From Escherichia phage AAPEc6, in sequence record NC_047769.1: DNA of 44,559 bases, one strand, 5' to 3'. The notes under the pieces were generated by a model. That model did no database searches, had not been told where the DNA came from, and was given only the letters and a program-made list of their open reading frames with translations. Below, piece after piece: positions 5,864 through 30,685 of this stretch. Every line of letters begins with the position of its first letter. Positions within the stretch are counted from its first letter, which is position 1. The position numbers were made by a program, and so were the translations under genes.

Positions 5864-5879
5864 GTCTCACATGTGAGAC
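5864..5879 (+). repeat. 16-bp perfect palindrome GTCTCACATGTGAGAC (copy 1), just upstream of a promoter
   Basis: Read directly; identical to the copies at 6045, 8256 and 30670. Confidence 0.9.
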
Positions 5880-5881
5880 TT

Positions 5882-5903
5882 ATTTACCGGACACTATAGG
5901 ATA
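5882..5903 (+). promoter_or_regulatory. Phage RNAP promoter (ATTTACCGGACACTATAGGATA)
   Basis: Matches the window consensus ATTTACTGGACACTATAGAAG at most positions. Confidence 0.6.
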
Positions 5904-5940
5904 ACCGTCGGAGACGGGAAAGAAAGGGAAGATAAAGGAT

Positions 5941-6000
5941 ATAAAGGAAGTAATAGGTATTAAAGGTTATATAGGTTATCTAGGAATACCTATTACCTTC
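5941..6000 (+). other. AT-rich block with phased TAGGT(A/T)A repeats and an 11-bp inverted repeat (GTAATAGGTAT ... ATACCTATTAC); candidate replication origin or RNase III site
   Basis: Inverted repeat read directly (5950-5960 pairs with 5986-5996); position between RNAP and gene 1.1 with two flanking promoters mirrors the T7 primary origin. Confidence 0.45.
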
Positions 6001-6044
6001 TTCCTTCCTCTTATTACCACTCAGAGGAAGGGCAGACCTAGGTT

Positions 6045-6060
6045 GTCTCACATGTGAGAC
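6045..6060 (+). repeat. 16-bp palindrome GTCTCACATGTGAGAC (copy 2)
   Basis: Read directly. Confidence 0.9.
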
Positions 6061-6065
6061 TTCGT

Positions 6066-6088
6066 ATTTACCGGACAGTATAGATAAG
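6066..6088 (+). promoter_or_regulatory. Variant phage promoter (ATTTACCGGACAGTATAGATAAG)
   Basis: Consensus-like with CAGTATAGA replacing CACTATAGA. Confidence 0.45.
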
Positions 6089-6113
6089 ATTAACTCACTT
6101 TGGAGATTTAACC

Positions 6114-6242
6114 ATGCGCAACTTTGAGAAGATGGCCCGTAAAGCTAACCGTTTTGACATGGAAGAGGGGCAGAAGAAAGGCAAGAAGCTGAATAAGCCT
6201 GTCCGTGACCGTGCATCTAAACGCGCTGCGTGGGAGTTCTAA
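6114..6242 (+). CDS. Gene 1.1-like small basic protein (42 aa)
   Basis: Translation MRNFEKMARKANRFDMEEGQKKGKKLNKPVRDRASKRAAWEF resembles T7 gp1.1 (MRNFEKM...KLNK..RDR..KR..WE) as remembered; GGAG RBS; below the ORF-track cutoff. Confidence 0.7.
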   Translation: MRNFEKMARKANRFDMEEGQKKGKKLNKPVRDRASKRAAWEF

Positions 6243-6245
6243 GTT

Positions 6246-8234
6246 ATGGCTATTATTCAGAATGTACCGTGTCCTGCCTGTCAAAAGAATGGACATGATA
6301 TTACTGGCAACCATCTCATGATATTTGATGATGGTGCTGGCTACTGTAATCGTGGACACTTTCATGATAATGGTAGACCTTACTATCACAAGCCGGAAGG
6401 TGGCATCGAGATAACCGAGTTACCTATTACTGGCAATATCAAATATACACCTTCTCAATTCAAAGAAATGGAGAAGGAAGGGAAGATAAGCGACCCTAAA
6501 TTACGTGCCATCGCACTAGGTGGTATGCGTATGAAAGACCGTTGGGAGGTCATGAATGAGCAAGAAAGGGCAGACCAAGAAGCAGAGTGGAAACTTGATG
6601 TTGAATGGTTCCTTACGCTTAAGCGTAAGAACCTTGTTTCCCGACACATTCGCGGCGACATTTGCGCATTGTATGATGTACGTGTCGGACACGATGAAGA
6701 GGGTAGAGTCTCGAGGCATTACTATCCACGCTTCGAGAAAGGTGAGCTAGTAGGCGCTAAGTGTCGCACATTACCTAAAGACTTTAAGTTTGGTCATTTA
6801 GGTAAACTCTTTGGTATGCAAGATCTTTTCGGGATGAATACTTTGTCTCACGTGTTAGACAAGGGAAGACGAAAGGATTGCTTGCTTATTGTGGGTGGGG
6901 AACTGGATGCGCTAGCAGCGCAGCAGATGCTCCTTGATTCTGCCAAGGGTACTAAGTGGGAAGGCCAACCTTACCATGTATGGTCTGTTAACAAAGGGGA
7001 GTCTTGCCTTGAAGAGATTGTGCAGAACCGTGAACACATCGCCCAATTCAAGAAGATTATTTGGGGCTTCGATGGGGATGAGGTAGGGCAGAAGCAGAAC
7101 CAGCAAGCGGCTCGCCTGTTTCCTGGCAAATCCTATATCCTTGAGTACCCTTCTGGCTGCAAAGATGCCAACAAGGCATTGATGGCTGGCAAGGCTAAAG
7201 AGTTTGTTGATGCATGGTTTAATGCCAAGCCATCTGATGAAGTCTTTGGTAGCCAGATTAAATCTATCGCATCTCAAAGGGATAAGCTCAAGGCTGCACG
7301 TCCAGAGCAAGGACTATCATGGCCTTGGCCTAAGCTGAACAAGGTAACGCTAGGTATTCGTAAGAACCAGCTTATCATTGTAGGTGCAGGGTCTGGTGTA
7401 GGTAAGACTGAGTTCCTTCGTGAAGTAGTTAAGCACCTCATTGAAGAACACGGTGAATCTGTGGGCATCATTTCTACAGAAGACCCGATGGTCAAGGTGT
7501 CCCGTGCTTTTATCGGCAAGTGGATTGATAAGCGTATTGAGTTACCTCCAACCAACGACCCGAAAGAAGACGGATACCGTGAGGTGTTCGACTATACCGA
7601 GGAAGAAGCTAACGCCGCCATTGATTATGTAGCTGATACAGGTAAGCTGTTTGTAGCTGACCTAGAGGGTGACTATTCGATGGAAAAGGTAGAGCAAACT
7701 TGCCTAGAGTTTGAGGCTATGGGTATTTCTAATATCATCATTGATAACTTAACGGGGATTAAATTAGATGAGCGTGCTTTTGGTGGGAAGGTTGGTGCAC
7801 TTGATGAATGCGTCAAGCGGATTGGTACTATCAAAGACCGACACCCGGTTACTATATTCCTTGTATCACACCTTACACGTCCTCCGGCAAACCGTACCCA
7901 ACACGAAGAAGGTGGCGAAGTTATCCTTTCTGACTTCCGAGGCTCAGGCGCTATCGGATTCTGGGCATCTTACGCCTTGGGGATTGAGCGTAATACAAGA
8001 GCTGAAACGCTTGACGAAAGGACTACCACGTACATCTCATGTGTCAAAGACCGCGACCAAGGTATCTACACTGGAACCAAGGTCATGCTTAAGGGTGACA
8101 TTCAAACCGGACGTTTAATGGAACCACAAGCCCGTACTAAGTCATTTGATACAGGTGAAGCAAGGCAACAAGAAGTACCAGATTTACCGGACACTATAGA
8201 AGAGACTAACTTCGATGAAGAAAGTGAGTTCTGA
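6246..8234 (+). CDS. DNA primase/helicase (T7 gp4-like)
   Basis: 662 aa; N-terminal zinc ribbon (CPAC...C..GHFH), Walker A GAGSGVGKT, acidic C-terminus ending ...FDEESEF. Confidence 0.95.
   Translation: MAIIQNVPCPACQKNGHDITGNHLMIFDDGAGYCNRGHFHDNGRPYYHKPEGGIEITELPITGNIKYTPSQFKEMEKEGKISDPKLRAIALGGMRMKDRWEVMNEQERADQEAEWKLDVEWFLTLKRKNLVSRHIRGDICALYDVRVGHDEEGRVSRHYYPRFEKGELVGAKCRTLPKDFKFGHLGKLFGMQDLFGMNTLSHVLDKGRRKDCLLIVGGELDALAAQQMLLDSAKGTKWEGQPYHVWSVNKGESCLEEIVQNREHIAQFKKIIWGFDGDEVGQKQNQQAARLFPGKSYILEYPSGCKDANKALMAGKAKEFVDAWFNAKPSDEVFGSQIKSIASQRDKLKAARPEQGLSWPWPKLNKVTLGIRKNQLIIVGAGSGVGKTEFLREVVKHLIEEHGESVGIISTEDPMVKVSRAFIGKWIDKRIELPPTNDPKEDGYREVFDYTEEEANAAIDYVADTGKLFVADLEGDYSMEKVEQTCLEFEAMGISNIIIDNLTGIKLDERAFGGKVGALDECVKRIGTIKDRHPVTIFLVSHLTRPPANRTQHEEGGEVILSDFRGSGAIGFWASYALGIERNTRAETLDERTTTYISCVKDRDQGIYTGTKVMLKGDIQTGRLMEPQARTKSFDTGEARQQEVPDLPDTIEETNFDEESEF
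6845..6860 (+). repeat. Palindrome variant GTCTCACGTGTTAGAC inside the primase-helicase CDS
   Basis: Read directly; one mismatch from the perfect palindrome. Confidence 0.6.
8182..8204 (+). promoter_or_regulatory. Phage promoter (ATTTACCGGACACTATAGAAGAG) embedded in the helicase C-terminal codons
   Basis: Near-consensus; encodes ...DLPDTIEET... Confidence 0.6.
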
Positions 8235-8255
8235 TTAGTGTATTTATCAGGGCTT

Positions 8256-8271
8256 GTCTCACATGTGAGAC
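8256..8271 (+). repeat. 16-bp palindrome (copy 3) with conserved flanks ggcttGTCTCACATGTGAGACagg, downstream of the helicase
   Basis: Read directly; followed by a T-rich stretch, hairpin/terminator-like. Confidence 0.9.
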
Positions 8272-8310
8272 AGGCTCTTATTAAGTACATTAAATAACTG
8301 GAGATTGATT

Positions 8311-8994
8311 ATGTATAACTTAGTGTTGAATGTAGGTGACTTTGTACGCAACATCAAGAAAGATTCAAGTCGCTATCTTTGCCGTGGTGTTGTAACCTTT
8401 GTAGGTGAGAACCTGTATTATGTAGAATATCGCAGTGGTGTTAAGCAATATTACCACAAGAAGACAGCACATAAATATCTTGAAAAGATTGTAGAGATAA
8501 ACAATCAATGTAAGTGCATACATGATGAGGTTTGCGATAAATGTGCTCGCCAGATGCTTAAGAATTTCCTAGCTCCTCTTTATTATGGTGCTGGCCCTCA
8601 AACACTAGCAGAGTACATGGCAGAAAAGAAAACCACACTCAAGAAAGAGCGTCGCAATGTAATCACTGGTAAGACTCAAAGTGAGATGATTAAGCAATGT
8701 GGCACTGCATTAGGTGTTACGCAGTTTAATACTCGTTCATTGGGTAAATCCACAGGGCAAGCTATGGTAAAGATTGGCGAAGCCATGATGCATCCAAATG
8801 TACCTGTACGAATCATGGATGTTGACCATGCAATCACAGAACACGGTACGCAACGACGTGTAATTAATAAGCATTTTGCCGACACTATAGAAGGTATTAT
8901 TCGTAAGCAAGAGTTGAAGGGTCTTCACATCTTAAATGGTGAAGAATTACTGTACCTACCTATCGTTACTGAAGAAACATACGTGAATATCTAA
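8311..8994 (+). CDS. Hypothetical protein with Cys cluster (CKCIHDEVCDKC), 228 aa
   Basis: ORF track 8305..8994 (TTG); ATG at 8311. Confidence 0.6.
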   Translation: MYNLVLNVGDFVRNIKKDSSRYLCRGVVTFVGENLYYVEYRSGVKQYYHKKTAHKYLEKIVEINNQCKCIHDEVCDKCARQMLKNFLAPLYYGAGPQTLAEYMAEKKTTLKKERRNVITGKTQSEMIKQCGTALGVTQFNTRSLGKSTGQAMVKIGEAMMHPNVPVRIMDVDHAITEHGTQRRVINKHFADTIEGIIRKQELKGLHILNGEELLYLPIVTEETYVNI

Positions 8995-9004
8995 GGAGTT
9001 AATC

Positions 9005-9163
9005 ATGACTAAGGTATTAATTTATATGCGTGGACCTCATAAATGCTATGCAGTTGTAGCACCAAATGGTGTTAAGCCTTATCGTACTTCAAAAAGATTG
9101 GCATTAATAGGTGCTAGTAGTAGTGCAAGTTTCCAAATGGAACTTTTTTGGTCATTGGACTGA
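9005..9163 (+). CDS. Small ORF (52 aa)
   Basis: AAGGAG 6 nt upstream of the ATG; below the ORF-track cutoff. Confidence 0.35.
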   Translation: MTKVLIYMRGPHKCYAVVAPNGVKPYRTSKRLALIGASSSASFQMELFWSLD

Positions 9164-9213
9164 AAGGCAATTCCGTGAGGATTTTAAAGTCATTGGCAGC
9201 TTCATGGTGAAAT

Positions 9214-9390
9214 ATGCAGAATAAACATAGTCTTAAAATGTTCGATGGTCATGAAGACCTGCAAGCCAAGATTACTAACCAAGCCTTCCTGTTCGCTCAG
9301 GTAACTATGGCTGAGGCCAAGAAGAATAGTCTCACTCGTGAACAGGTTATCAAGGAAAGTGAAGTGAAACGTAAGATTCGCAGTCGATAA
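9214..9390 (+). CDS. Small ORF (58 aa, basic C-terminus)
   Basis: ATG at 9214; ends just before the palindrome at 9401. Confidence 0.3.
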   Translation: MQNKHSLKMFDGHEDLQAKITNQAFLFAQVTMAEAKKNSLTREQVIKESEVKRKIRSR

Positions 9391-9400
9391 GTCAAGGGTT

Positions 9401-9416
9401 GTCTCACGTGTGAGAC
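9401..9416 (+). repeat. 16-bp palindrome GTCTCACGTGTGAGAC (copy 4, CACGTG core)
   Basis: Read directly; flanks gggtt...cagcc extend the inverted repeat. Confidence 0.9.
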
Positions 9417-9541
9417 AGCCTTTCATCATATTGATTGGAGGTGCATTATGCCACGTGATTATGATTCTGATTGGGACTATTATGACTCAATGAATCCAAA
9501 ACCCGAACGTTCAGATGATTACTACGAAACAGAGGCAATGT

Positions 9542-12088
9542 ATGAAGACTATTGATTGGAAGAAGGAGGCAGAAGGTCGTATCCTCGTGATGGATGCGGA
9601 AGCTAAAGGACTCCTTGACGCCATCCGATATGGACACCGTGAAGATGTGCATATCATTTGCTGCATGGACTTGCTTACTACCGAGGAGTTTCTCTTCTTT
9701 GACCCGTATGAGATGCGTGACCCTGAAGCAAGAGAACTCCTGAAGGAATGGGAAGGTCATCAAGATGGAACCTTGGTTGACGGTGTTAACTTCCTGAAGC
9801 ACTGTGAGGCTATTGTGTCGCAGAACTTCCTAGGATATGACGGTCTTCTCTTTGAGAAAGCATTCCCTGATATTTGGAAAGGCTTTAACTATACCGAGAA
9901 GCGCGGCAAGGGCAGACTCCGTGCTGACCTGTGTCCGGTGCGAGTCATGGATACGCTGGTGATGAGTCGCCTGTTAAACCCCGATAGACGCCTTCCTCCG
10001 CAAGCATATGCCAAAGGTATGGGTAACGTCGCCCCTCACTCAATTGAGGCGCACGGCATCCGTATAGGCCGCTATAAACCGGAGAACGAGGACTGGTCTA
10101 AACTAACTGACCACATGGTTCACCGTGTACGTGAGGACGTGGCGATTGGTCGTGACTTGTTCCTCTGGCTCTTTAACGGGGAATGGATGGAGCACAAACG
10201 CCGTGGCGTGAATAAACGCACTGGCCTAGGTATTGAGACAGCTTTCCACATGGAGTCCATTGTGGCGCTGGAGATGAGCCGTCAGGCCGAGCGTGGATTC
10301 CGTCTGGATATAGATAAAGCATTAGCACGATGCGAGGAATTGGACGCTAAGATTGATGAGACAGTCGCAGCGTTCCGTCCGCACATGCCTATGCGTATCA
10401 AGTCTAAACCTTTTAAACCGGAAGAAAAGAATGAAGTATGCCAACGCGCAAATGAGTATGGAGCTAGCAACAATATACCTACTGTCCTTGACCCCTCACA
10501 CTTTCTTCATGTCGAGAGACGAGGAGATCGCAAGACAGTATGGAGTGTCACTACTAAGTCTGGTGATTGGTCGGCTAGCGTCAAGAAAGACTTTCCTCAC
10601 CTTAGAGGAAACCGTAATGACACGCCAAGTATCAAGTGGATTGGCGCTTACTCGCCTGTTACTTTCGAAGAGATTCCCTTGGGTAACAGGGATACAGTTA
10701 AGCAAGTGCTCTATGATTATGGATGGAAGGGTGTTGAATTTAATGATACCGAGCAAGCGCATCTCGATGAGTACGGAGTATTACCCAAGCCTTGGAGTGG
10801 GAAGATAAATGAAAAGTCCCTTACTTTATGGCAAGAAAGAGCCGCACGTGAAGGTAAAACAGTCCCTGATTGGTGCTTGGGTATCGCTGCATGGTACATA
10901 CTCGTATCCCGTCGTGGTCAGATCCTCAACCGTGGTGACGTTGAAGCCTTCGACCAGAAGGGGGTGTGGCCTTCGCAAGCTGGTATACGAAAGTGTCGCG
11001 GCCTTGTACCTGTAGCATTTAACAAGGAGTTAGGAATCAATGCGCAGCAATACTACGAAAGGTACGGATGCTGGCCTACGTCAGACAAGGATGACGGAGA
11101 ATGGCGTGTGCCAGCTATTGCTATTAGTATTGGAACTTCTACGTTCCGTATGCGTCATCGTAACGTGGTTAATATTCCTGCCCGTGGTTTGTATCCTTTA
11201 CGTGATTTATTCATAGCCGGTAAAGGTAAGCTAATCCTTGGTTGTGATGGTGCTGGTCTTGAACTACGTGTACTGTCTCACTTCATGAATGACCCTGAAT
11301 ACCAAGATATTGTACTGCATGGTGACATTCACACCCATAATCAAATGAAGGCTGGTCTTCCTAAGCGTGACATGGCGAAGACATTTATATATGCCTTCCT
11401 ATATGGGTCTGGTATAGCTAACCTTGCAGCAGTATGTGGTGTTACTGAGGAAGAAATGGAGGAAGTTGTGGCAAGATTTGAGGTTGAACTACCATCTCTT
11501 GCACGTCTTCGTGAGAATGTTATCGCACAAGGTAACAAGTTTGGCTACCTACAAGCACCTGATGGTCATTGGGGTCGCATCCGTATGTCTGGTGGTGAAC
11601 TTAAAGAACACACTATGCTTAACGTACTACTCCAGATGACTGGTTCTCTGTGTATGAAATACGCATTGGTCAGAGCGTTTGCAGTGATGCGCAAGGAAGG
11701 TGTGGCCTTAGATAGCATGGGAAACCCTTGCGGTATAGCTAACGTGCACGATGAAATCCAGATGGAAGTCCCTGAAGATGAGGTCTTGTATCTCAACTAC
11801 GACTTGCCTTTCACCTTAGAAGGGTTCGAAACAGAGAAGGCTGCTGTGAAAGCAGTGTTCGATGCAGAGGAGAAACGTGTTCATGTGGATTCTGAAGGAC
11901 GTATGTGGTCTGCTGCAAATCTCGTTAGTGTTGATGCTGATGCTGGTGTACTTCATTGCCAGCGTCGTTATCACCGTGCAGGGCATATCATTGCCGACGC
12001 AATGACCTGGGCGGGTCAGTACCTGAAGATGCGTTGTCCGATGGCAGGTGAGTATAAGATTGGTGCAAGTTGGAAGGAAACACACTGA
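9542..12088 (+). CDS. DNA polymerase (family A, T7 gp5-like)
   Basis: N-terminal exonuclease motif ILVMDAEA, motif A GCDGAGLELRVL, motif C NVHDEIQ; ORF track begins at 9515. Confidence 0.95.
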   Translation: MKTIDWKKEAEGRILVMDAEAKGLLDAIRYGHREDVHIICCMDLLTTEEFLFFDPYEMRDPEARELLKEWEGHQDGTLVDGVNFLKHCEAIVSQNFLGYDGLLFEKAFPDIWKGFNYTEKRGKGRLRADLCPVRVMDTLVMSRLLNPDRRLPPQAYAKGMGNVAPHSIEAHGIRIGRYKPENEDWSKLTDHMVHRVREDVAIGRDLFLWLFNGEWMEHKRRGVNKRTGLGIETAFHMESIVALEMSRQAERGFRLDIDKALARCEELDAKIDETVAAFRPHMPMRIKSKPFKPEEKNEVCQRANEYGASNNIPTVLDPSHFLHVERRGDRKTVWSVTTKSGDWSASVKKDFPHLRGNRNDTPSIKWIGAYSPVTFEEIPLGNRDTVKQVLYDYGWKGVEFNDTEQAHLDEYGVLPKPWSGKINEKSLTLWQERAAREGKTVPDWCLGIAAWYILVSRRGQILNRGDVEAFDQKGVWPSQAGIRKCRGLVPVAFNKELGINAQQYYERYGCWPTSDKDDGEWRVPAIAISIGTSTFRMRHRNVVNIPARGLYPLRDLFIAGKGKLILGCDGAGLELRVLSHFMNDPEYQDIVLHGDIHTHNQMKAGLPKRDMAKTFIYAFLYGSGIANLAAVCGVTEEEMEEVVARFEVELPSLARLRENVIAQGNKFGYLQAPDGHWGRIRMSGGELKEHTMLNVLLQMTGSLCMKYALVRAFAVMRKEGVALDSMGNPCGIANVHDEIQMEVPEDEVLYLNYDLPFTLEGFETEKAAVKAVFDAEEKRVHVDSEGRMWSAANLVSVDADAGVLHCQRRYHRAGHIIADAMTWAGQYLKMRCPMAGEYKIGASWKETH

Positions 12089-12204: not shown

Positions 12205-12302
12205 TGCAGGCATCTTTTATTATTCTTGGAGTCATATTATTTATGGTAGTATTCTGGGCTTTCTCTGGCATTGACCCAGATTGTGATGGTAACTACGACT
12301 GA
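12204..12302 (+). CDS. Membrane miniprotein (32 aa), apparent paralog of the preceding ORF
   Basis: TGATG overlap with the upstream miniprotein; hydrophobic core FIILGVILFMVVFWAF; similar acidic C-terminus. Confidence 0.35.
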   Translation: MQASFIILGVILFMVVFWAFSGIDPDCDGNYD

Positions 12303-12370
12303 GTTATACTCAAGGTCACTTACGAGTGGCCTTTATGAATAACTTATTCCTACTTATTTTGTCTAACATG

Positions 12371-12393
12371 ATTTACTGGACACTATAGAAGGA
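12371..12393 (+). promoter_or_regulatory. Phage promoter (ATTTACTGGACACTATAGAAGGA)
   Basis: Exact consensus; preceded by GTCTAACATG, a palindrome half-site relic. Confidence 0.8.
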
Positions 12394-12450: not shown

Positions 12451-12457
12451 TATAAAT

Positions 12458-12835: not shown

Positions 12836-12841
12836 GGGTTT

Positions 12842-13218: not shown

Positions 13219-14025
13219 ATGGCACGTGGTGATTTTGATTTTGGTGCTCAGGTTACTAAAGCTGAAGGTAAAGTATTTAAGAACCCTGAAGTTGGTGATC
13301 ATGAAGCAGTAATCTCTGGCATCATTCATGTTGGTTCCTTCCAAGATATCTTTAAGAAAGGTAATACCACTGAAGTTAAGAAGCCAGCAAACTTTGTTCT
13401 TGTTAAAATTATCCTGATGGGCGACGATGACAAGAATGAAGATGATTCTCGCATGGAACAGTGGATGGCTGTGCCATTGAAGTCTGGTGACAAGGCAACT
13501 CTTACTAAGTTCCTGAATGCAGTTGACCCTAAAGAATTGCTGGGTGGCTTCGATGATTTCATCGGTGAATGTCTGACTGCAACTATGGTTGGCTCTGGTG
13601 ATAAGAATGACGATGGCTCATTCAAGTATGTTAACTGGAAAGGATTTGGTGGTATGCCTGACAAGCTGAAGAAACTGGTCATTGCTCAGGTTGAAGAGGA
13701 AGGTCTGTCTATGACAGGTCACATTACCTTTGACAAGCTGACAAAAGAAATCCTTGATGACATCCCAGCTAACTTGGTGCGTCAATACTTCCTGAACGAG
13801 ACACCTCGTGGTAAGAACCTGTCTGTTGCTGGTTCTCATGTAGAAGCAATAATTAAAGCTGCTCGTGAAGAAGACCCAGAATGGAAGAAGGCTAAGAAGA
13901 AAGACGAGGAAGATGCTACCCCAGCTAATCGTAAACCTCTGGATACTGGTGAGTCTGTTCCGCAGGAAGTACCTGAAGCAGAAGATACGCCTGCACCGGA
14001 GATGGATGAGGACGCGGAATATTAA
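13219..14025 (+). CDS. Candidate ssDNA-binding protein (gp2.5-like; acidic C-terminus ...EMDEDAEY)
   Basis: 268 aa, beta-rich N-terminal region, long acidic tail ending in an aromatic residue; AGGAGA RBS; assignment by position and composition only. Confidence 0.5.
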   Translation: MARGDFDFGAQVTKAEGKVFKNPEVGDHEAVISGIIHVGSFQDIFKKGNTTEVKKPANFVLVKIILMGDDDKNEDDSRMEQWMAVPLKSGDKATLTKFLNAVDPKELLGGFDDFIGECLTATMVGSGDKNDDGSFKYVNWKGFGGMPDKLKKLVIAQVEEEGLSMTGHITFDKLTKEILDDIPANLVRQYFLNETPRGKNLSVAGSHVEAIIKAAREEDPEWKKAKKKDEEDATPANRKPLDTGESVPQEVPEAEDTPAPEMDEDAEY

Positions 14026-14254: not shown

Positions 14255-14270
14255 GTCTCACGTGTGAGAC
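14255..14270 (+). repeat. 16-bp palindrome GTCTCACGTGTGAGAC (copy 5), upstream of a promoter
   Basis: Read directly. Confidence 0.9.
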
Positions 14271-14285
14271 AAATCGGTGTCCGGT

Positions 14286-14308
14286 ATTTACTGGACACTA
14301 TAGAAGAG
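14286..14308 (+). promoter_or_regulatory. Phage promoter (ATTTACTGGACACTATAGAAGAG)
   Basis: Exact consensus. Confidence 0.85.
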
Positions 14309-23763: not shown

Positions 23764-23770
23764 TACCTAT

Positions 23771-23806: not shown

Positions 23807-23818
23807 TTAGGAGGATTC

Positions 23819-24556
23819 ATGCCTGTAATTAGACAAACCAGTAAAGTAGGACATATGATGGAAGATGTGGCCTTCCAGATTATTGATAGTAAGCTGGAAG
23901 CGGTAAACTTGTGTATGCGAGCTATTGGTCGTGAGGGTGTGGATTCTCTCGACTCAGGGGACTTGGACGCAGAAGATGCAAGCAAGATGATCGACATCGT
24001 ATCCCAGCGGTTCCAGTACAACAAAGGAGGTGGCTGGTGGTTCAATCGTGAACCAAACTGGCAGATTGCACCTGATACCAATGGTGAAGTCAATTTACCT
24101 AACAACTGCCTAGCAGTATTGCAGTGTTATGCTTTAGGTGAAAAGAAAGTACCTATGACTATGCGAGCAGGTAAGCTCTACTCTACTTGGAGTCACACCT
24201 TTGATATGCGTAAGCATGTTAATGCTAATGGTATGATTCGTCTTACCTTACTCACCTTACTACCCTACGAGCATTTACCTACAAGTGTAATGCAGGCTAT
24301 TGCCTATCAAGCTGCTGTAGAGTTTATTGTGTCTAAGGATGCAGATCAGACTAAGCTAGCCACTGCGCAGCAGATAGCCACTCAGCTTCTTATGGATGTA
24401 CAATCTGAGCAAATGTCACAGAAGCGATTAAACATGCTGGTACATAACCCCACTCAGCGTCAGTTTGGTATCATGGCAGGTGGTTCTCAGAATGTACCTG
24501 CTTACTCTCATTCACCATATGACAGTTGGGCACTTCGTCCGTGGGAGGATCGTTAA
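23819..24556 (+). CDS. Tail tubular protein A (gp11-like)
   Basis: ATG at 23819 after GGAGGA (ORF track TTG at 23804); position. Confidence 0.8.
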   Translation: MPVIRQTSKVGHMMEDVAFQIIDSKLEAVNLCMRAIGREGVDSLDSGDLDAEDASKMIDIVSQRFQYNKGGGWWFNREPNWQIAPDTNGEVNLPNNCLAVLQCYALGEKKVPMTMRAGKLYSTWSHTFDMRKHVNANGMIRLTLLTLLPYEHLPTSVMQAIAYQAAVEFIVSKDADQTKLATAQQIATQLLMDVQSEQMSQKRLNMLVHNPTQRQFGIMAGGSQNVPAYSHSPYDSWALRPWEDR

Positions 24557-26958
24557 TGGAAGTACAAGGTTCATTAGGGAGGCAAATCCAAGGGATTAGC
24601 CAGCAACCTCCAGCGGTACGTCTTGATGGTCAATGTACGACTATGGTGAACATGGTCCCTGATGTAGTGAATGGAACTCAATCCCGCATGGGTACAACTC
24701 ATATTGCAAAGATACTTGATGCGGGGACTGATGACATGGCTACTCATCATTATCGCAGAGGTGATGGTGATGAAGAGTATTTCTTCACGTTGAAGAAAGG
24801 ACAAGTTCCTGAGATATTCGATAAGTATGGGCGCAAATGTAATGTGACTTCACAAGATGCACCTATGGCTTACTTGGCTGAGGTGATAAACCCAAGAGAA
24901 GATGTGCAATTTATGACGATAGCTGATGTTACTTTCATGCTTAACCGCAGGAAGGTAGTTAAAGCCAGTAACAGAAAGTCACCCAAAGTTGGAAACAAAG
25001 CCATTGTGTTTTGTGCATATGGTCAATACGGTACATCTTATTCCATTGTAATTAATGGGGCCAACGCTGCTAGTTTTAAAACACCGGATGGTGGAAGTGC
25101 AGACCATGTTGAACAAATTCGAACTGAACGTATCACTTCTGAATTGTTCTCTAAGTTGCAGCAATGGAGCGGTGTGAGTGACTATGAAATACAAAGAGAC
25201 GGTACTAGTATATTTATCGAGAGACGGGATGGTGCTAGCTTTACAATAACAACCACCGATGGTGCAAAAGGTAAGGATCTGGTGGCTATCAAGAATAGGG
25301 TCAGTTCTACTGACCTTCTTCCTTCTCGTGCCCCTGAAGGGTATAAAGTACAAGTGTGGCCTACTGGAAGTAAACCAGAGTCCCGTTATTGGTTACAAGC
25401 GGAACCTAAAGAGGGAAACCTTGTATCTTGGCAAGAAACAGTAGCTGCTGATGTATTACTTGGATTTGATAAAGGTACAATGCCTTACATCATTGAACGT
25501 ACAGGCATCATTGACGGCATAGCTCAATTTAAGATTAGGCAAGGCGATTGGGAAGACCGCAAGGTAGGGGATGACTTGACTAACCCCATGCCATCCTTTA
25601 TTGATGAAGAAGTTCCTCAGACAATTGGTGGAATGTTCATGGTGCAGAACCGTTTATGCTTTACAGCAGGTGAAGCTGTCATTGCATCACGCACTTCCTA
25701 CTTCTTTGATTTCTTCCGTTACACTGTTATCTCAGCTTTGGCTACCGACCCATTCGATATCTTCTCAGATGCGAGTGAAGTTTACCAGTTGAAACATGCA
25801 GTGACTTTAGATGGTGCTACTGTACTGTTCTCTGATAAATCTCAATTTATCTTACCGGGAGATAAGCCGCTGGAGAAGGCTAATGCCCTACTTAAGCCTG
25901 TAACCACTTTTGAAGTGAACAACAAAGTTAAGCCAGTTGCCACTGGCGAGTCTGTGATGTTCGCTACAAACGATGGTGCATATTCTGGTGTACGAGAGTT
26001 TTATACAGATTCTTATAGTGACACTAAAAAGGCTCAGGCAATCACGAGCCATGTGAATAAGCTAATCGAAGGTAATATTATAGGCATGGAAGCTAGCACC
26101 AATGTTAACCGCTTGCTTGTCACTACAGATAAGTACCGCAACATAATCTACTGCTATGATTGGTTATGGCAAGGAACAGACCGTGTACAATCTGCATGGC
26201 ATGTATGGGAGTGGCCTTTGGACACAAAGGTACGAGGTATGTTTTATTCTGGCGAATTACTTTACCTGCTCCTTGAGAGAGGCAATGGTGTCTATCTGGA
26301 GAAGATGGATATGGGTGATGCATTAACCTATGGTTTAAATGATCGCATCCGAATGGACAGACAGGCAGAGTTAATCTTCCAGCATTTCAAAGCAGAAGAT
26401 GAATGGGTATCTGAACCGCTCCCTTGGGTTCCTACTAACCCAGAACTTTTAGATTGCATCTTAATCGAGGGTTGGGATTCATACATTGGCGGCTCTTTCT
26501 TATTCAAGTACAACCCTAGTGACAATACTTTGTCTACAACCTTTGATATGTATGATGACAGCCATGTAAAAGCGAAGGTAATTGTTGGTCAGATTTACCA
26601 TCAAGAGTTTGAACCTACGCCTGTGGTTATCAGAGATAATCAAGACCGCGTATCATATATTGATGTACCAGTTGTTGGTTTGGTTCATCTTAACCTTGAT
26701 ATGTACCCTGATTTCTCCGTAGAAGTTAAGAATGTGAAGAGCGGTAAGGTGCGTAGAGTGTTAGCGTCAAACCGTATAGGTGGTGCTCTCAACAATACAG
26801 TAGGTTATGTTGAACCGAGAGAAGGTGTCTTCAGATTTCCACTGAGAGCTAAGAGCACGGATGTTGTTTATCGTATCATTGTAGAGTCACCTCACACATT
26901 CCAGCTTCGTGATATTGAGTGGGAAGGTAGCTACAATCCAACAAGAAGGAGGGTCTAA
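24556..26958 (+). CDS. Tail tubular protein B (gp12-like)
   Basis: 800 aa; TAATG overlap with the upstream gene; position and size. Confidence 0.85.
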   Translation: MEVQGSLGRQIQGISQQPPAVRLDGQCTTMVNMVPDVVNGTQSRMGTTHIAKILDAGTDDMATHHYRRGDGDEEYFFTLKKGQVPEIFDKYGRKCNVTSQDAPMAYLAEVINPREDVQFMTIADVTFMLNRRKVVKASNRKSPKVGNKAIVFCAYGQYGTSYSIVINGANAASFKTPDGGSADHVEQIRTERITSELFSKLQQWSGVSDYEIQRDGTSIFIERRDGASFTITTTDGAKGKDLVAIKNRVSSTDLLPSRAPEGYKVQVWPTGSKPESRYWLQAEPKEGNLVSWQETVAADVLLGFDKGTMPYIIERTGIIDGIAQFKIRQGDWEDRKVGDDLTNPMPSFIDEEVPQTIGGMFMVQNRLCFTAGEAVIASRTSYFFDFFRYTVISALATDPFDIFSDASEVYQLKHAVTLDGATVLFSDKSQFILPGDKPLEKANALLKPVTTFEVNNKVKPVATGESVMFATNDGAYSGVREFYTDSYSDTKKAQAITSHVNKLIEGNIIGMEASTNVNRLLVTTDKYRNIIYCYDWLWQGTDRVQSAWHVWEWPLDTKVRGMFYSGELLYLLLERGNGVYLEKMDMGDALTYGLNDRIRMDRQAELIFQHFKAEDEWVSEPLPWVPTNPELLDCILIEGWDSYIGGSFLFKYNPSDNTLSTTFDMYDDSHVKAKVIVGQIYHQEFEPTPVVIRDNQDRVSYIDVPVVGLVHLNLDMYPDFSVEVKNVKSGKVRRVLASNRIGGALNNTVGYVEPREGVFRFPLRAKSTDVVYRIIVESPHTFQLRDIEWEGSYNPTRRRV

Positions 26959-27704
26959 TGGCTATAGGTTCAGCTGTTATGGCTGGTATGTCTTCTATTG
27001 GTAGTATGTTTGCAGGCAGCGGTGCAGCAGCCGCTGCTGGTGGTACTGCCGCAGCAGCAGGAGGGACAGCCGCCGCAGGTGGCGGAGGTTTGCTTGGCTC
27101 ACTTGGTAGTTTCTTAGGAGGTTCTTCTGCTGGCTTCTCTAATGCAGGACTGCTTAGTGCAGGTATGCAAGGTCTTGGTCTTCTAGGCAATCTTTTTGGT
27201 GGAAGTGATGAAGCCAAAGCTATGAAGAAAGCTCAAGAGGAGCAATGGCGGCAGCAGTTAATTGCTACACAAGAAGCATACAAAACAGTAGCAGATGCAG
27301 AACGCTCTGCTGCTAAACAGTATCATGCAGATGCAATCAGTAATCAGGCTTCACTGCTACAGCAAAGAGCACAGGTTGCATTACTTGCTGGTGCTACTGG
27401 TACTGGTGGTAACTCTGTGTCTTCTATGCTGAATGACTTAGCAGCAGAAGGCGGAAGGAACCAGAGTACAATTATCGATAACTATGAGAATCAGAAGATT
27501 AATTTCACCAACCAGCTTAAGTCCATCCAACGGGGTGGTCAGATGCAGATGCGTGAGTTTAAGAAACCTTCTGCCGTGAGCACCTTGGTGCAAGGTATCC
27601 CGAGTCTGGCATCTGCCTATGTAACAGGTAGTAAGTCCGGCATGGCTTTAGGTAAAGCTTTAACTGATTCTCGTACATATTCATCTGGAACAAGAGGTAT
27701 TTAA
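26958..27704 (+). CDS. Internal virion protein (Gly/Ala-rich N-terminus)
   Basis: ORF track; AAGGAGG RBS; position after the tail tubular genes. Confidence 0.65.
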   Translation: MAIGSAVMAGMSSIGSMFAGSGAAAAAGGTAAAAGGTAAAGGGGLLGSLGSFLGGSSAGFSNAGLLSAGMQGLGLLGNLFGGSDEAKAMKKAQEEQWRQQLIATQEAYKTVADAERSAAKQYHADAISNQASLLQQRAQVALLAGATGTGGNSVSSMLNDLAAEGGRNQSTIIDNYENQKINFTNQLKSIQRGGQMQMREFKKPSAVSTLVQGIPSLASAYVTGSKSGMALGKALTDSRTYSSGTRGI

Positions 27705-30652
27705 TGGCAATTGAGCGACAAGCAGTACAAGGTCTGCCACAAGTGCAGGCCACTTCTCCTAATGTCATGACCTTTGCACCTCAGCGAGTTGGAGGTGTGG
27801 AGGCTGGCGTAGCTTCTACCTCCGGTAGTCGATTTATCGAAGACCTTATTCGAGCAGCCAGTAGTGTAGCTGATGTAACCACTGGTATCCTTAATCAAAA
27901 GATTGAGGAAGATAAGGTTGTTCAAATGGAACGGGCATATAACGGATTAATGCCTTCTGAGGATGCAACTCGTGGTGGCGCTCGTGCTAACATGCTTGTC
28001 AAAGCTCAACTGCTAGCTAATGATGAAGCAGCACGAATGAAAGACATGGCTACTCGTTTCCAAGGAACGGATGACGAGTGGACACAACTTATGGTTGACT
28101 CTCGTAATGAGATGCAGAATAAGCTGTTCCAGCAATACCCTGAGTTGCAAGGTGACAAAGATACTATGCGTATGGTCACTAATGTCTTCCAAGAACAGCA
28201 GCCTCAGATTTGGGCTACACGAACCCAGCATAAACTTGACCGTGAACAAGCAGACCGTGAGGATACCTTTGACGGGCGAGTGGCTTCTACTTGGGATTCT
28301 AATATTGACCCTGAAGCCTCTGGCTATGCTTTACAGGAACGAATCCGCGAAGGTCTTACTCAAGGATTACTACCTGAACAGATGCACAAGAAGTTAGTCC
28401 AGCGAGCAATTTCACTTGCACAAGGAGGTGATGTTAGCATGGCTGAAGCCCTGAAGTATGTGAAGGACGATAAGGGTGTTTCTGTTTATGCTAAGAATCC
28501 ACAGCTTATCACAGCCATCACTAGTGGTAACGCAGTTTGGGCTAGGAATAATGTAGCTGATGTAACTCGTATGTCTTTCGAAGTTAAAGAATCCTACCTT
28601 GCAGGTGATTTAACTGATGAAGAATTGTTGGAACGAGCACAGCACATTAATAATCTGACAGGTAACTCTGTCTTCTCTAATCCAGAACTAGAGGCACTGA
28701 TGCGCCAACGGGCTAAGCAGAATGCAGAGCTAGGTGCAATGCAGGATATGCGACGTGAGCTTTACTCCGATCGCCTGACTGGCTTCCAAGGTAAGACTGA
28801 CAAAGAGAAGAAGGCTTACATTGATGTTATCAAACAGGATAGCCAACTTTATGCAGACCAGCAAATCAAACAACGTGGCTTGGACCCTTACAGTCAAGAG
28901 GCTGAAGCTATTCGTGGTGCAGTGGAAGTGCAGCGCCTGCAATTCATGAACTCCAAAGGCTTAGTGGATGATACCTTTGAGTCTCGTATCAAAGCCATGG
29001 AATCTATGCTATCGCCTGAGCACTTTGCCAAGGGCGAACCACAGGAGTTGATGACTATTCGCCAGTTGTGGGAACAGTTACCAGAAGAGAGCCGAGGTGT
29101 CTTTGGTGACACGGTGAATGGCTATATGGATAACTACAACACTGCACTACAAATGGGAGAGACACCTTTGCAGGCTGCAAGGTTTGCGCGTGAAGCACAG
29201 CAGAAATTCTCTCGTACTGAGAAGGAAACCAAGAAGTTCAACTCAGCTATTGGAGATGCACTGGATGAGGTATCTGGTGCTGGCTGGTTTGATGGTAAAA
29301 CCGAAGTGTCAGACTTAGGTAAAGCTATTGCGGAAGAAGAGTTACGAGCTAAGGCCAATATGTTGTGGTCTAGTGGTATGCGTAACATGGATTCCATCAA
29401 GAAGGCTTTAATTACTTGGGGCAATAAACGCTACACTCAATCAGAGGATGCAAAGACTTCCGGTGGCTATTTCATTAAAGGTGATTACACTTCTGCATCT
29501 GATATGCTTATGTCAGTTGGGAAAGGCGTAAACCCTACCGATGTACCTCTGGCGCTTGGTAGGTATGTAGAAACACAGATGCCAGAATTGAAGAAGGAGC
29601 TTCAAGAGTGGGAAACTAAAGATGATATATACATTGATTACAATGAACAGAAAGGAACTTTTGTGATTCGTGCTGGTGCAGCAGGTCGCCCTCTTTCTGG
29701 AGTAATCCCTGTAACCTCTTTAGATACTACTTCACTACTAGATTCTGCCTATCAGAAGAAAGTAGAGAAACGAGATAAAGGCGAGTATGTTCACCCGTAC
29801 CGTACAGATATTGGTGCACAAGAGCCTATGCCAGCTAAACCAACTGCCAAAGATATTGGTAAATTTGGACTAGCTAACTTCCTCATGTCTTCTGCTTTTG
29901 CTTCTGGTGAGAATCTGCCTTCTAACTTCGAGATTAACTATCGAGGTAATATGCAACAATTCTATGACAAGCTAGCTATGGATGAGAATAAAGATAAAGT
30001 TGGCTTTAATAGGGCAACTGGAACCTTTACTCCATATAAAGACGCTCGCGGTGAGTCTATCGGTTACGGTCATTTCTTAACGGAAGAAGAGAAGCGAAAC
30101 GGGTATATTAAGATTGGTGATGAACTAGTTCCCTATCGAGGGTCTATGTCTCAGCTTACAGAGAGCAAGGCTCGCGCTCTTATGGAGCAAGATGCTAAGA
30201 AGCATGTGCCTCCTACTCGTGACTGGAAGATTCCGTTTGACCAGATGCATCCTGCACAGCAACGTGGCTTGATGGATTTAACCTACAATTTAGGTAAAGG
30301 TGGAATCCAGAACTCACCGCGTGCTCTTGCTGCATTCAAAGCTGGTAAGCTTACGGAAGGCTTTATCGAAATGCTGGGCACTGCATCAAGTGAAGGTAAG
30401 CGTATTCCTGGCCTACTGAAGCGACGCGCTGAGGCATACAATATGGCATCTGCTGGTGGTGTGCCTAAGATTACCGAAGTGGAGACTCGTGAAGATGGCT
30501 CCATGTGGGTTAGGTTTGGTGGACCTATGCCAGCAGGTTCTGTCTCGGCATGGACTCATAAACGTATTGGCGCGGATGGTTGGTATCAGGTTTATGAGGC
30601 TGCACCTACCAAGTTAGCTAAAGGTTCTAAGGTAGGTAAAGTTAAGTTGTAG
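27704..30652 (+). CDS. Internal virion protein with T4-lysozyme-like (GH24) domain near the C-terminus
   Basis: Segment PYKDARGESIGYGHFL parallels T4 lysozyme IYKDTEGYYTIGIGHLL. Confidence 0.8.
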   Translation: MAIERQAVQGLPQVQATSPNVMTFAPQRVGGVEAGVASTSGSRFIEDLIRAASSVADVTTGILNQKIEEDKVVQMERAYNGLMPSEDATRGGARANMLVKAQLLANDEAARMKDMATRFQGTDDEWTQLMVDSRNEMQNKLFQQYPELQGDKDTMRMVTNVFQEQQPQIWATRTQHKLDREQADREDTFDGRVASTWDSNIDPEASGYALQERIREGLTQGLLPEQMHKKLVQRAISLAQGGDVSMAEALKYVKDDKGVSVYAKNPQLITAITSGNAVWARNNVADVTRMSFEVKESYLAGDLTDEELLERAQHINNLTGNSVFSNPELEALMRQRAKQNAELGAMQDMRRELYSDRLTGFQGKTDKEKKAYIDVIKQDSQLYADQQIKQRGLDPYSQEAEAIRGAVEVQRLQFMNSKGLVDDTFESRIKAMESMLSPEHFAKGEPQELMTIRQLWEQLPEESRGVFGDTVNGYMDNYNTALQMGETPLQAARFAREAQQKFSRTEKETKKFNSAIGDALDEVSGAGWFDGKTEVSDLGKAIAEEELRAKANMLWSSGMRNMDSIKKALITWGNKRYTQSEDAKTSGGYFIKGDYTSASDMLMSVGKGVNPTDVPLALGRYVETQMPELKKELQEWETKDDIYIDYNEQKGTFVIRAGAAGRPLSGVIPVTSLDTTSLLDSAYQKKVEKRDKGEYVHPYRTDIGAQEPMPAKPTAKDIGKFGLANFLMSSAFASGENLPSNFEINYRGNMQQFYDKLAMDENKDKVGFNRATGTFTPYKDARGESIGYGHFLTEEEKRNGYIKIGDELVPYRGSMSQLTESKARALMEQDAKKHVPPTRDWKIPFDQMHPAQQRGLMDLTYNLGKGGIQNSPRALAAFKAGKLTEGFIEMLGTASSEGKRIPGLLKRRAEAYNMASAGGVPKITEVETREDGSMWVRFGGPMPAGSVSAWTHKRIGADGWYQVYEAAPTKLAKGSKVGKVKL

Positions 30653-30669
30653 TACCTAACTCAAGGCTT

Positions 30670-30685
30670 GTCTCACATGTGAGAC
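30670..30685 (+). repeat. 16-bp palindrome (copy 6) with the same 24-bp context as copy 3 (ggcttGTCTCACATGTGAGACagg)
   Basis: Read directly; lies between two internal virion protein genes. Confidence 0.9.

Follow-up and report, generated by a model that had tools for sequence, protein, structure and literature searches.

Repeated palindromes and stem-loops that bear some likeness to the elements analysed here are known from several systems. The IncP plasmid RK2 carries 12 operators for KorB. The window, i.e. the whole stretch of DNA that was analysed (44,559 nucleotides, from a K1-5-like Vectrevirus), resembles ParB and KorB replicons in having several palindromic sites in the 13-16-bp range on one replicon. 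The differences are nevertheless considerable. Compared with ParB and its 16-bp palindrome parS (TGTTNCACGTGAAACA), the half-sites of the window's 16-mer are 2 bp further apart, and its eight sites are dispersed in a 44-kb lytic genome; the candidate binding protein, gp6, has neither a CTPase domain nor a ParA partner nor a segregation context. The sliding-clamp mechanism of KorB cannot apply to gp6, in which the N-terminal ParB/Srx (CTPase) domain is missing and a coiled coil and a J-like C-terminus are present in its place. Moreover, the phage that encodes gp6 is lytic and T7-like, with a single-subunit polymerase reading its promoters, the sites in gp6-type phages measure 16-17 bp as opposed to 13 bp for the KorB operator OB, and no partition function is expected. 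The RNase III sites of T7 share architecture and strand with three of the copies, all of which are intergenic and lie beside ribosome binding sites. In T7, however, the apical stem-loop differs per site, whereas the window has one invariant 16-mer that also stands by itself at five places, where RNase III-type flanks are missing. Finally, the promoter-early stem-loop (PeSL) cassettes of T4-type phages are likewise repeated stem-loops near promoters at gene-module boundaries of lytic phages, but their position is variable and tied to gene shuffling, whereas the positions of the 16-mer are orthologous across genera and changes in its sequence go along with changes in a DNA-binding protein. Both gp6 and palindromes of this kind are missing from T7, and no description of the element was found in the searchable literature.

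A search of the window recovered exact matches to GTCTCACRTGTGAGAC at 5864, 6045, 8256, 9401, 14255 and 30670 as well as one-mismatch copies at 325 and 6845, eight copies in total, in agreement with the first-pass annotation. Among 100 dinucleotide-preserving shuffles no exact match occurred, against the six observed, and with up to three mismatches allowed (<=3) 16 strand-matches were observed against a mean of 0.67 in 100 such shuffles. The six exact copies had been called perfect palindromes, but this description applies only to the four CATG-centred ones, since the two central bases are asymmetric in the CGTG-centred copies (9401, 14255 and 6845). A mobile mini-element of the MITE or REP type was considered and rejected, because the positions are common to Vectrevirus and six other genera and no duplications flanking the copies were seen in the window. 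The relevant features are:

325 to 340, no strand: left-end copy GTCTCACATGTTAGAC with a single mismatch; the -35 hexamer of the early promoter 375-403 lies 35 bp downstream
375 to 403: first sigma-70-like early promoter, downstream of the left-end copy
2176 to 3099, plus strand: early gene for gp6 (307 aa), the candidate palindrome-binding protein, immediately upstream of the RNA polymerase gene
5864 to 5879, no strand: core-only copy, exact match, after the early terminator (5798-5821)
6045 to 6060, no strand: core-only copy, ending 5 bp before the phage promoter 6066-6086
6845 to 6860, no strand: copy GTCTCACGTGTTAGAC within the primase/helicase gene (6246-8234), read in frame 2 as S-H-V-L-D
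8235 to 8293, plus strand: two-part RNA hairpin, from folding and covariation, with the core copy 8256 to 8271 as apex
9381 to 9437, plus strand: two-part RNA hairpin downstream of gene 11, with the core copy 9401 to 9416 as apex
12361 to 12370, no strand: half-site relic GTCTAACATG, fused to the promoter at 12371
14255 to 14270, no strand: core-only copy adjoining the gene 17 stop codon, 15 bp upstream of the phage promoter 14286-14306
30647 to 30709, plus strand: two-part RNA hairpin at the gp35/gp36 junction, with the core copy 30670 to 30685 as apex
39461 to 39468, no strand: half-site relic GTCTTACG, fused to the promoter at 39469

The division into two contexts proposed in the first-pass annotation holds: copies 5864, 6045 and 14255 precede phage promoters, while 8256, 9401 and 30670 follow stop codons. 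The half-site relics were also correctly placed against promoters. Copy 5864 ends 2 bp before the phage promoter 5882-5902 and spans about -35 to -20. Since only three of the 12 phage promoters have an operator alongside, copy 30670 has no promoter close by and the nearest one to copy 9401 lies about 0.5 kb upstream, a simple promoter-operator role fails for some copies. A terminator scan flagged 5864 and 6045, which have 6-bp stems with three G-C pairs and the tails TTATTTAC and TTCGTATTTA; the true early terminator is a separate hairpin, apart from copy 5864, and a U tract is absent at 325, 6845 and 14255. The deviating T at 6845 is explained by the reading frame, as a TGA stop would arise from the consensus TGAGAC in frame 2, where TTA is found instead.

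Far from being absent from close relatives, the motif recurs at orthologous positions throughout Molineuxvirinae; some lineages have GTCTCAC..GTGAGAC, others GTCCAAC..GTTGGAC. Eight positions are common to the Vectrevirus genomes examined, except that K1-5 has no 9401 copy, and orthologous positions exist in six other genera (seven in all). All genera examined have orthologues of 5864 downstream of the RNA polymerase gene; an orthologue of 14255 was not identified in two Eracentumvirus phages and is present in every other genus examined. The whole relative genomes examined contain 6 to 10 copies and partial contigs 2-6; copies at other junctions in distant relatives indicate that sites are gained and lost. 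In each genome one motif version is used in all copies, including those inside the helicase and ligase genes, where it is retained at the cost of fixed amino acids: the helicase copy encodes SHVLD in Vectrevirus and SNVLD in SP6, Klebsiella and Pectobacterium phages, with sites of the form GTCCAAC..GTTGGAC or, in SP6, GTCTAAC..GTTGGAC, the amino acid thus changing with the motif version. The latter form predominates in SP6 and amounts to a plus-strand U.G wobble at pair 4:13 (six copies, versus one in the opposite sense). Across Molineuxvirinae and in uncultured relatives at only 32-55% protein identity, 10 of the 14 arm positions never change, whereas the intergenic DNA around the sites is unalignable. 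Only the pairs 4:13 and 5:12 vary, and they change jointly in all copies of a genome; the loop positions C7, R8, Y9 and G10 equal the stem in conservation and symmetry. The left-end copy, which has an orthologue in nine other Molineuxvirinae genomes examined, mixes two different valid half-sites (GTCTCAC, GTCTAAC, GTCCAAC) in 7 of 10 genomes. Half-site identity is thus kept there and pairing lost.

Copies 8256, 9401 and 30670 have complementary flanks and, in the mRNA, form the tip of putative T7-type RNase III processing hairpins, a two-part architecture that recurs in orthologues from 5-6 genera. The hairpin 8235-8293, located between the helicase gene and gene 10, consists of a 12-bp lower stem, a 2/3-nt internal loop, a 13-bp upper stem and a tetraloop; its folding energy is -31.2 kcal/mol on the plus strand versus -17.2 on the minus strand, and covariation was found in five genera. 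For the hairpin 9381-9437, which also shows covariation and whose 3' arm extends to the next gene's Shine-Dalgarno sequence, the corresponding values are -29.2 and -14.2 kcal/mol. In the hairpin alignment, 13 of 24 pairs show compensatory changes, the covariation score is 0.56 versus 0.19 in shuffles (0 of 500 reach 0.56), and 97.7% of the cells are paired versus 77.9% in shuffles; G.U pairs are numerous and specific to the plus strand. The first-pass annotation had set RNase III sites aside because structural hairpins conserve pairing rather than sequence, an argument that does not hold for these three apices.

Around the internal loop, the T7 RNase III consensus reads ACUCAAGG...CCUUUAUGA, also given as ACUCAAGG...CCUUUAU^GAU, and when folded, R0.3, R0.5, R1.1, R4.7 and R18.5 of T7 show the same flanking consensus at their coordinates in the T7 GenBank annotation. 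Hairpin 30647-30709 has the full consensus, ACUCAAGG-[apex]-CUUUAUGAU, with an exact match of the flanks in six genera, while the flanks at 8256 (AUCAGGG...CUCUUAUUA) and 9401 (GUCAAGG...CCUUUCAUCAU) are variants, which suggests that a DNA-recognition level and an RNase III level coexist. Copies 325, 5864, 6045 and 14255 have no complementary flanks, leaving only a 6-7-bp stem; pairing around 6845 is weak and specific to K1-5-like phages, and no copy in distant relatives has flank pairing. The window's fourth RNase III-type hairpin, at 12308-12338, has an apical sequence unrelated to the 16-mer. As the T7 sites also use unrelated apices, an RNase III apex needs no such sequence.

In gp6, named hypothetical protein in all sources, aa 1-122 form an N-terminal helix-turn-helix domain with the DNA-binding fold of ParB, KorB and VirB. 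Beyond it lie a disordered linker, a coiled coil predicted at 205-246 and a C-terminus that resembles a J domain but has no HPD motif. A helix at 46-57, a turn (G58-I-K) and a helix at 61-74 containing K66 make up the helix-turn-helix. No Pfam family matched at E <= 0.01, only weak DUF3102 matches being seen; there was no significant sequence match to any DNA-binding family and none to solved structures. When G58 is set at position 9, L50-S69 agrees with the 20-residue helix-turn-helix pattern, so that residues 62, 63 and 66 fall on positions 13, 14 and 17. In the established motif, positions 13 and 17 are those of LacI Q18 and R22.

Residue 66 follows the palindrome version. Counted over 32 viral-contig loci, all 16 GTCTCAC loci, from Vectrevirus, Eracentumvirus and three deep lineages, have K66, and all 15 with GTCCAAC or GTCTAAC have N66; SP6, with H66, is the exception to a K/N rule that holds in 31 of 32 loci. 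When de-replicated loci, 10 of them with K and 11 with N, were screened, gp6 had two positions that separate the groups, K66 and one other, as opposed to 0 of 2,394 in the control proteins RNA polymerase, helicase and DNA polymerase. The RNA polymerase tree gives K as the ancestral state, with a single origin of N and a return to K (AAG codon) in Vectrevirus, which is nested in the N clade. More distant gp6 homologues with other helix residues have palindromes of their own: W63/R66 goes with GTATACTA.. and H63/R66 with GTCTCCT... Aeromonas phage Aer_P220 (helix KKSWAFRLM) has five copies of GTRTACTRYAGTACAC, four of them with a plus-strand A.C mismatch, not G.U, while the relatives L276 (KKAWAFRLM) and L278 (KKAHVYRLV) have two copies of GTATACTACAGTATAC and six of GTCTCCT-YR-AGGAGAC, respectively. 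The L270/271/275 lineage and Proteus phages, with S62, carry 17-bp versions; S62 does not always go with this form, as Aer_P220 and L279 combine it with 16-bp sites. The K/N correlation comprises two evolutionary events, alongside three deeper divergences that changed several helix residues at once. Lysine-guanine and asparagine-adenine are textbook contacts. The base-specific contacts of KorB reportedly lie outside its helix-turn-helix, so that the position-17 logic may not transfer to gp6.

From these comparisons we consider it probable that the 16-bp palindromes are duplex DNA operators for a dimer of the phage early protein gp6. As in dimeric helix-turn-helix regulators, changes in the recognition helix co-vary with the half-site. 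Sequence-specific recognition by a dimeric regulator, one of the options named in the first-pass annotation, is thereby strengthened and given a candidate whose helix residues change with the palindrome; its dispersed mini-element and nuclease-site options are left unsupported, because positions are orthologous across genera and not variable.

The palindromes could instead matter only as plus-strand RNA hairpins, serving as RNase III sites, 3'-end stabilisers or pause/terminator signals for the phage polymerase, with sequence identity due to common descent or to an RNA-binding factor that reads the stem. The covarying hairpins with their strand-specific G.U pairs, the consensus flanks at 30670 and their variants at 9401 and 8256, the terminator-like appearance of 5864 and 6045 in a simple scan, and the U.G wobble in six SP6 copies, as expected from RNA hairpin selection, are all in keeping with this. 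However, five of eight copies have no complementary flanks, and their 6-7-bp stem is too short for RNase III. Neither the T7 apices nor that of 12308-12338 resemble the 16-mer, and a hairpin does not need a loop as conserved and symmetric as its stem. No promoter precedes the left-end copy, which is often unable to pair; together with the A.C mismatches of Aer_P220, the mixed half-sites of this copy indicate that pairing is dispensable where RNA structure cannot matter. As the co-variation with a helix-turn-helix protein is also left unexplained, we regard a purely RNA-based role as unlikely.

Two further explanations dispense with gp6. Recombination linkers, or a small copy-and-paste element homogenised by gene conversion within each genome without a dedicated binding protein, would account for the single version per genome whose copies change together, for the location at module boundaries beside promoters and for copies at other junctions in distant relatives; they would be comparable to the PeSL cassettes of T4-type phages. 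Yet the positions are orthologous across seven genera, with no target duplications and no associated mobility gene, and a conversion tract cannot yield the in-gene GTCTCAC..GTTAGAC, in which only one of two neighbouring right-arm bases has been updated. The apices of T7 RNase III sites are not homogenised, although their flanks are just as similar, and the gp6 residue that follows the motif version stays unexplained, which makes this scenario very improbable. Alternatively, a host protein common to Enterobacterales (ParB-, MatP- or SlmA-like, or a transcription factor) might bind the sites and be exploited or titrated by the phage. Phages of E. coli, Erwinia and Pantoea do have the same motif, and the GTCTCAC half-site resembles the parS half-site GTTTCAC as well as everted SlmA and LacI half-sites. 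Nevertheless, the spacing is off from parS by 2 bp, we know of no host factor with such a site, and the motif version follows the phage protein residue, not the host: E. coli and Erwinia phages have one version, Salmonella, Klebsiella, Proteus and Pectobacterium phages the other. A host factor is thus extremely unlikely.

If the palindromes are gp6 operators, each monomer would read one half-site, GTC-Y-M-AC, and residue 66 (position 17) would read base pair 5:12, with Lys for C:G and Asn or His for A:T. Both gp6 and the phage RNA polymerase are expressed from the early operon, which is transcribed by the host, and gp6 would then occupy about eight fixed sites: before the first early host promoter, before three phage promoters of the DNA-metabolism region, within the primase/helicase gene and at three gene junctions. 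If KorB is taken as a guide, the most likely role of gp6 would be a global tuning of phage transcription that extends to the first middle promoters and to an autoregulated early operon. Once transcribed, the DNA palindrome would fold into a hairpin, and T7-type RNase III hairpins, whose apex is free of sequence requirements, may have taken up the three junction copies there, so that the same bases would act in DNA and in RNA.

It is somewhat likely that SP6-like and wider, largely uncultured phages of the T7 supergroup possess an unrecognised module, in which an early DUF3102/ParB-fold protein is combined with 16-17-bp operators that are dual-coded and re-set in specificity. If so, the gene of the helix-turn-helix protein would always lie upstream of the RNA polymerase gene and be matched by a genome-wide operator set. 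The specificity of the module would have been re-set several times via helix positions 13, 14 and 17 (Lys-G, Asn-A), and its operators would serve both as protein sites in DNA and as the apical hairpins of RNase III signals in RNA.

The genome is that of a complete K1-5-like phage of 44,559 bp (Vectrevirus, Molineuxvirinae, Autographiviridae), which is identical to the IMG/VR contig UViG_2974581596_000001 and shares ~97% identity with K1-5 over a 10-kb test stretch. Its genes lie on the + strand throughout, and 12 phage-type promoters of the form ATTTACYGGACACTATAG are present. A scan of the window recovered GTCTCACRTGTGAGAC exactly at the six positions named in the first-pass annotation, as well as the two single-mismatch copies; none of the copies arise in shuffled sequence.

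Copies of the 16-bp element and the proposed binding protein in the window
325: left-end copy, single mismatch
2176-3099, + strand: gp6, early gene, 307 aa
5864: exact copy
6045: exact copy
6845: single mismatch (G-to-T relative to the consensus), in the primase/helicase gene, frame 2
8256: exact copy
9401: exact copy
14255: exact copy
30670: exact copy

The description of the copies as perfect palindromes holds for those centred on CATG only, and not for the remaining ones. Both of the proposed contexts were found: three copies end 2, 5 and 15 bp upstream of phage promoters, and three are preceded by stop codons and have complementary flanks. The change in the 6845 copy is owed to its location within a gene, because the consensus would read TGA in frame 2. 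In the left-end copy (window 336-365), the right arm plus one base gives TAGACA, a weak -35-like hexamer, which together with GATGAT 18 bp downstream reaches 9 of 12 matches, i.e. chance level. Should these hexamers be genuine, this copy's T variant might have a promoter function.

The other three Vectrevirus genomes have the copies at the same positions, save the 9401 copy, which is absent from K1-5. A de novo palindrome count showed that SP6, two Klebsiella Ulipvirus phages, Proteus Acadevirus, Pectobacterium PP1 and two Eracentumvirus phages have the element at orthologous positions as well. It can be written in general as GTC-NN-AC-(2 or 3 nt)-GT-NN-GAC, and the lineages have their own versions: GTCTCAC..GTGAGAC in Vectrevirus and Eracentumvirus, GTCCAAC..GTTGGAC in the Klebsiella, Proteus and Pectobacterium phages, and GTCTAAC..GTTGGAC as the main version in SP6. 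The two middle bases are always a purine followed by a pyrimidine, with one additional central base in the Proteus phages. In a viral contig scan, uncultured relatives with a protein identity of only 32-55% were found to have several copies of the exact K1-5 version; these are located a few bases 5' of ribosome binding sites, behind terminators or ahead of promoters, and their flanks are unpaired. No comparable palindromes were seen on inspection of the T7 genome.

When the SP6-like phages and the uncultured relatives are considered together, 10 of the 14 arm positions are without any change, and within any one genome the copies change together. This includes the in-gene copies, where the version alters the protein (helicase SNVLD vs SHVLD; ligase loop SNTLD vs SHVLD). 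The constant arm positions and the joint change of all copies call for a factor that reads the sequence, and thus back the sequence-specific recognition suggested in the first-pass annotation.

We looked through 26 core proteins for positions distinguishing the GTCTCAC from the GTCCAAC genomes. The clearest one is located in gp6, a protein named hypothetical in public sources, whose gene directly precedes that of the RNA polymerase. Its residue 66, in the conserved segment EFGIKKAQCY[K/N/H]LMSVARVF, is Lys where the genome has GTCTCAC, Asn where it has GTCCAAC, and His in SP6. This position was tested on 32 loci fetched with a gp6 profile, and no exception was found: K66 is present in 16/16 GTCTCAC loci (Vectrevirus, Eracentumvirus and three deep lineages), and all 15 N66 loci have GTCCAAC or GTCTAAC. 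Among de-replicated loci (10 K and 11 N), the 2,394 residues of RNA polymerase, helicase and DNA polymerase contain no separating position. In the RNA polymerase tree K is ancestral and N arose once, and Vectrevirus represents a reversal (AAC to AAG) nested within the N clade.

A profile search yielded 542 relatives of the gp6 N-domain, with helices variable at positions 62, 63 and 66. In both retrieved contigs for which an RNA polymerase gene was called, this gene is T7-like and has a gp6-type gene upstream.

Helices of gp6 relatives and the palindromes that accompany them
Aeromonas phage Aer_P220 (L242): helix KKSWAFRLM; GTRTACTRYAGTACAC; 5 copies (900, 8116, 8754, 14965, 16209)
Relative L276: helix KKAWAFRLM; GTATACTACAGTATAC; 2 copies
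Relative L278: helix KKAHVYRLV; GTCTCCT-YR-AGGAGAC; 6 copies
L270/271/275 lineage: helix GKSQAYKLM (L275: SKSQAYKLI); GTCTCACA-N-TGTGAGAC, 17 bp; 3-6 copies per contig

Helices with W63/R66 pair with GTATACTA.. palindromes, and H63/R66 with GTCTCCT... The combination of S62 with the 17-bp form is also found in the Proteus phages; a tie between the two is suggestive only, since it is held in two lineages and broken in Aer_P220 and in the relative L279. The Aer_P220 palindromes are situated at the left end, after the polymerase gene and before promoters. Three of them lie directly upstream of promoter-like TAAACACACACAATAGAA sequences, and the gp6 homologue of this phage is annotated as 'late transcription factor VLTF-4'.

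In a full-length model of gp6, the N-domain (aa 1-122) is confidently predicted; it is followed by a disordered linker, a long helix spanning 205-246 and a small C-domain.

Fold matches of gp6, with match values
Spo0J/ParB: 8.6
KorB DNA-binding domain on its operator: 7.7
ParB: 7.7
SopB-DNA: 5.8
P1 ParB: 5.5
VirB-DNA: 5.3

The protein also matches phage DUF3102 proteins, and a ParB CTPase domain was not found in it. L50-S69 fits the classical 20-residue helix-turn-helix pattern with G58 as position 9; residues 62, 63 and 66 would then be positions 13, 14 and 17. In LacI and 434 repressor, bases are read from positions 13 and 17 (Q18 and R22 in the former, Q29 and Q33 in the latter), and the expected chemistry places Lys with a G-containing and Asn with an A-containing pair. 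The C-terminus (aa 252-306, window 2929-3099, FYARLGLSAEEATKKTAVNKARRELVKLGYGEGHEAW) is J-domain-like but has no HPD motif; the fold match to the J-domain protein xRbj is weak, and the DnaJ Pfam match in a homologue is faint. The most plausible reading of the palindromes is that they are operators to which a gp6 dimer would bind. A similar arrangement is known from KorB and the dispersed operators of RK2, but gp6 is devoid of the ParB clamp machinery and belongs to a lytic phage with a single-subunit polymerase.

The 8256, 9401 and 30670 copies are in addition part of + strand hairpins of ~25 bp. The core is contained in their 13-bp upper stem; below a 2/3-nt internal loop, a 10-12-bp lower stem extends to the ribosome binding site of the downstream gene. 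The folding energies are -26 to -31 kcal/mol on the + strand vs -14 to -22 on the - strand. Hairpins of this architecture are found at the three orthologous junctions in five to six genera. An alignment of 15 sequences revealed compensatory changes in 13 of the 24 hairpin pairs, 97.7% paired cells (77.9% in shuffles) and a covariation score of 0.56 (0.19 in shuffles), which was reached by none of 500 shuffles; slid registers gave only ~40% pairing. We also folded T7 at the coordinates of its ten RNase III sites, and R0.3, R0.5, R1.1, R4.7 and R18.5 have this architecture, with the flanks ACUCAAGG...CCUUUAU^GAU. The exact T7 flank consensus is found on the 30670 hairpin in six genera, and variants of it on the 9401 and 8256 hairpins. 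Given the matching architecture and flanks, these three copies are the apical stem-loops of predicted T7-type RNase III processing signals. RNase III sites had been set aside in the first-pass annotation, which fails for these covarying hairpins with T7-type flanks. The remaining five copies are without pairing flanks and cannot be RNase III substrates.

A fourth hairpin of this type (12308-12338, window 12300-12346, ACTCAAGGTCACTTACGAGTGGCCTTTATGA, lower stem GAGTTAT/ATAACTT) lies directly upstream of a half-site relic and promoter 12371, and the same sequence occurs in SP6 at 12232. Its apex differs from the palindrome and resembles that of T7 R1.1; RNase III therefore leaves the apex sequence free. 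Rfam gave no match at any copy, and two sub-threshold matches are located elsewhere. In the Proteus phage Pm5460, the orthologue of the 8256 hairpin (9147-9189) is annotated as a 'rho-independent terminator'; by the present analysis it is an RNase III-type hairpin with a candidate operator at its apex. Between the 14255 copy and promoter 14286, a segment GGTGTCC (window 14271-14303) is complementary to the promoter core GGACAC, so that read-through RNA could fold the promoter into a hairpin, as is likewise the case for T7 sites overlapping promoters. The segment changes with the promoter (Proteus GGTGGTCT/AGACCAC, Pectobacterium CCGCCC/GGGCGG, also in the Klebsiella and SP6 phages).

Four observations favour reading of the core at the DNA level. 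Its symmetry extends across the centre, a feature not required of a hairpin loop; the left-end copy, upstream of all promoters, keeps valid half-sites where pairing is often impossible; four of the five Aer_P220 copies have an A.C mismatch, not G.U, on the + strand; and the partner that co-varies with the core is a helix-turn-helix protein. The main point for the core being read as RNA is the U.G bias in SP6 (6 copies vs 1), which may reflect selection on copies doubling as hairpins together with a coding-strand C-to-T bias. In a compact genome, the apex of an RNase III hairpin would count among the sequence-free non-coding space, and dual DNA/RNA use may have arisen because a DNA palindrome would fit there at no cost.

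Other readers of the motif were also considered. The GTC ends suggested a primase site of T7-type recognition, yet the motif lacks GCA, which SP6 primase is said to recognise in work by Tseng from 2000. The phage RNA polymerase was rejected because K1-5 and the Erwinia phages have a common motif and unrelated promoters, and because no polymerase residue tracks the version. The known sites of the host factors CRP, LacI, SlmA, MatP, FadR and MetJ do not match in half-site arrangement. At such divergence, the presence or absence of the small proteins gp11, gp17 and gp25 cannot be traced, given how short they are. Import of a gene from Erwinia-type phages into Vectrevirus was dismissed since no window protein is nearer to Eracentumvirus than to SP6.

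Two other features of the window may be mentioned. The small and large terminase genes are separated by an HNH_3 homing-endonuclease ORF (35476-35919, 147 aa, Pfam E 4.8e-11), which is not at the equivalent place in the K1-5 reference record; the small-terminase ORF as called (35337-35474) comprises only 45 aa. In gp16 (13219-14025, 268 aa, no Pfam family), the tail is strongly acidic and closes with an aromatic residue (...EMDEDAEY). This is reminiscent of gp2.5, the single-stranded DNA-binding protein of T7, so that gp16 may be the SSB of the phage.

As to the role of gp6, only 3 of the 12 phage promoters have an operator, and the operators are concentrated in the DNA-metabolism region and ahead of the early promoter. 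Because of this concentration, we favour a candidate role in tuning the early-to-middle programme combined with autoregulation. At 5.86-6.09 kb, two operators and two promoters take the place that the primary origin has in T7, which makes a replication-origin role possible; a roadblock role is possible as well.

In the searchable literature we found no match to any version of the 16-mer and no account of the motif or of gp6 function, nor were SP6 or K1-5 linked there with RNase III sites, ParB or DUF3102. The repeats themselves may have been noted earlier; their connection with gp6 and the specificity series are apparently new. The overlap with predicted RNase III signals would be a clear case of one sequence selected at the DNA and the RNA level, and it warns against the 'terminator' label that some annotations, such as that of Pm5460, use for such palindromes. 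If the operator reading is true, it would assign a function to the conserved 'hypothetical' gene family phrog_4571 (DUF3102-like), for which public proteins give >500 cluster representatives at 50% identity. Matched protein/operator pairs would moreover become available as a natural series, either for studying the evolution of DNA-binding specificity or as orthogonal engineering parts. SP6, K1-5 and K1E serve as models and as therapy candidates, and their polymerases are in use as laboratory tools; their transcription programme has been assumed to be T7-like. To our knowledge, T7 has no site-specific DNA-binding regulator besides its polymerase. A KorB-like operator network under an early protein would be a new control layer in the biology of the T7 supergroup.
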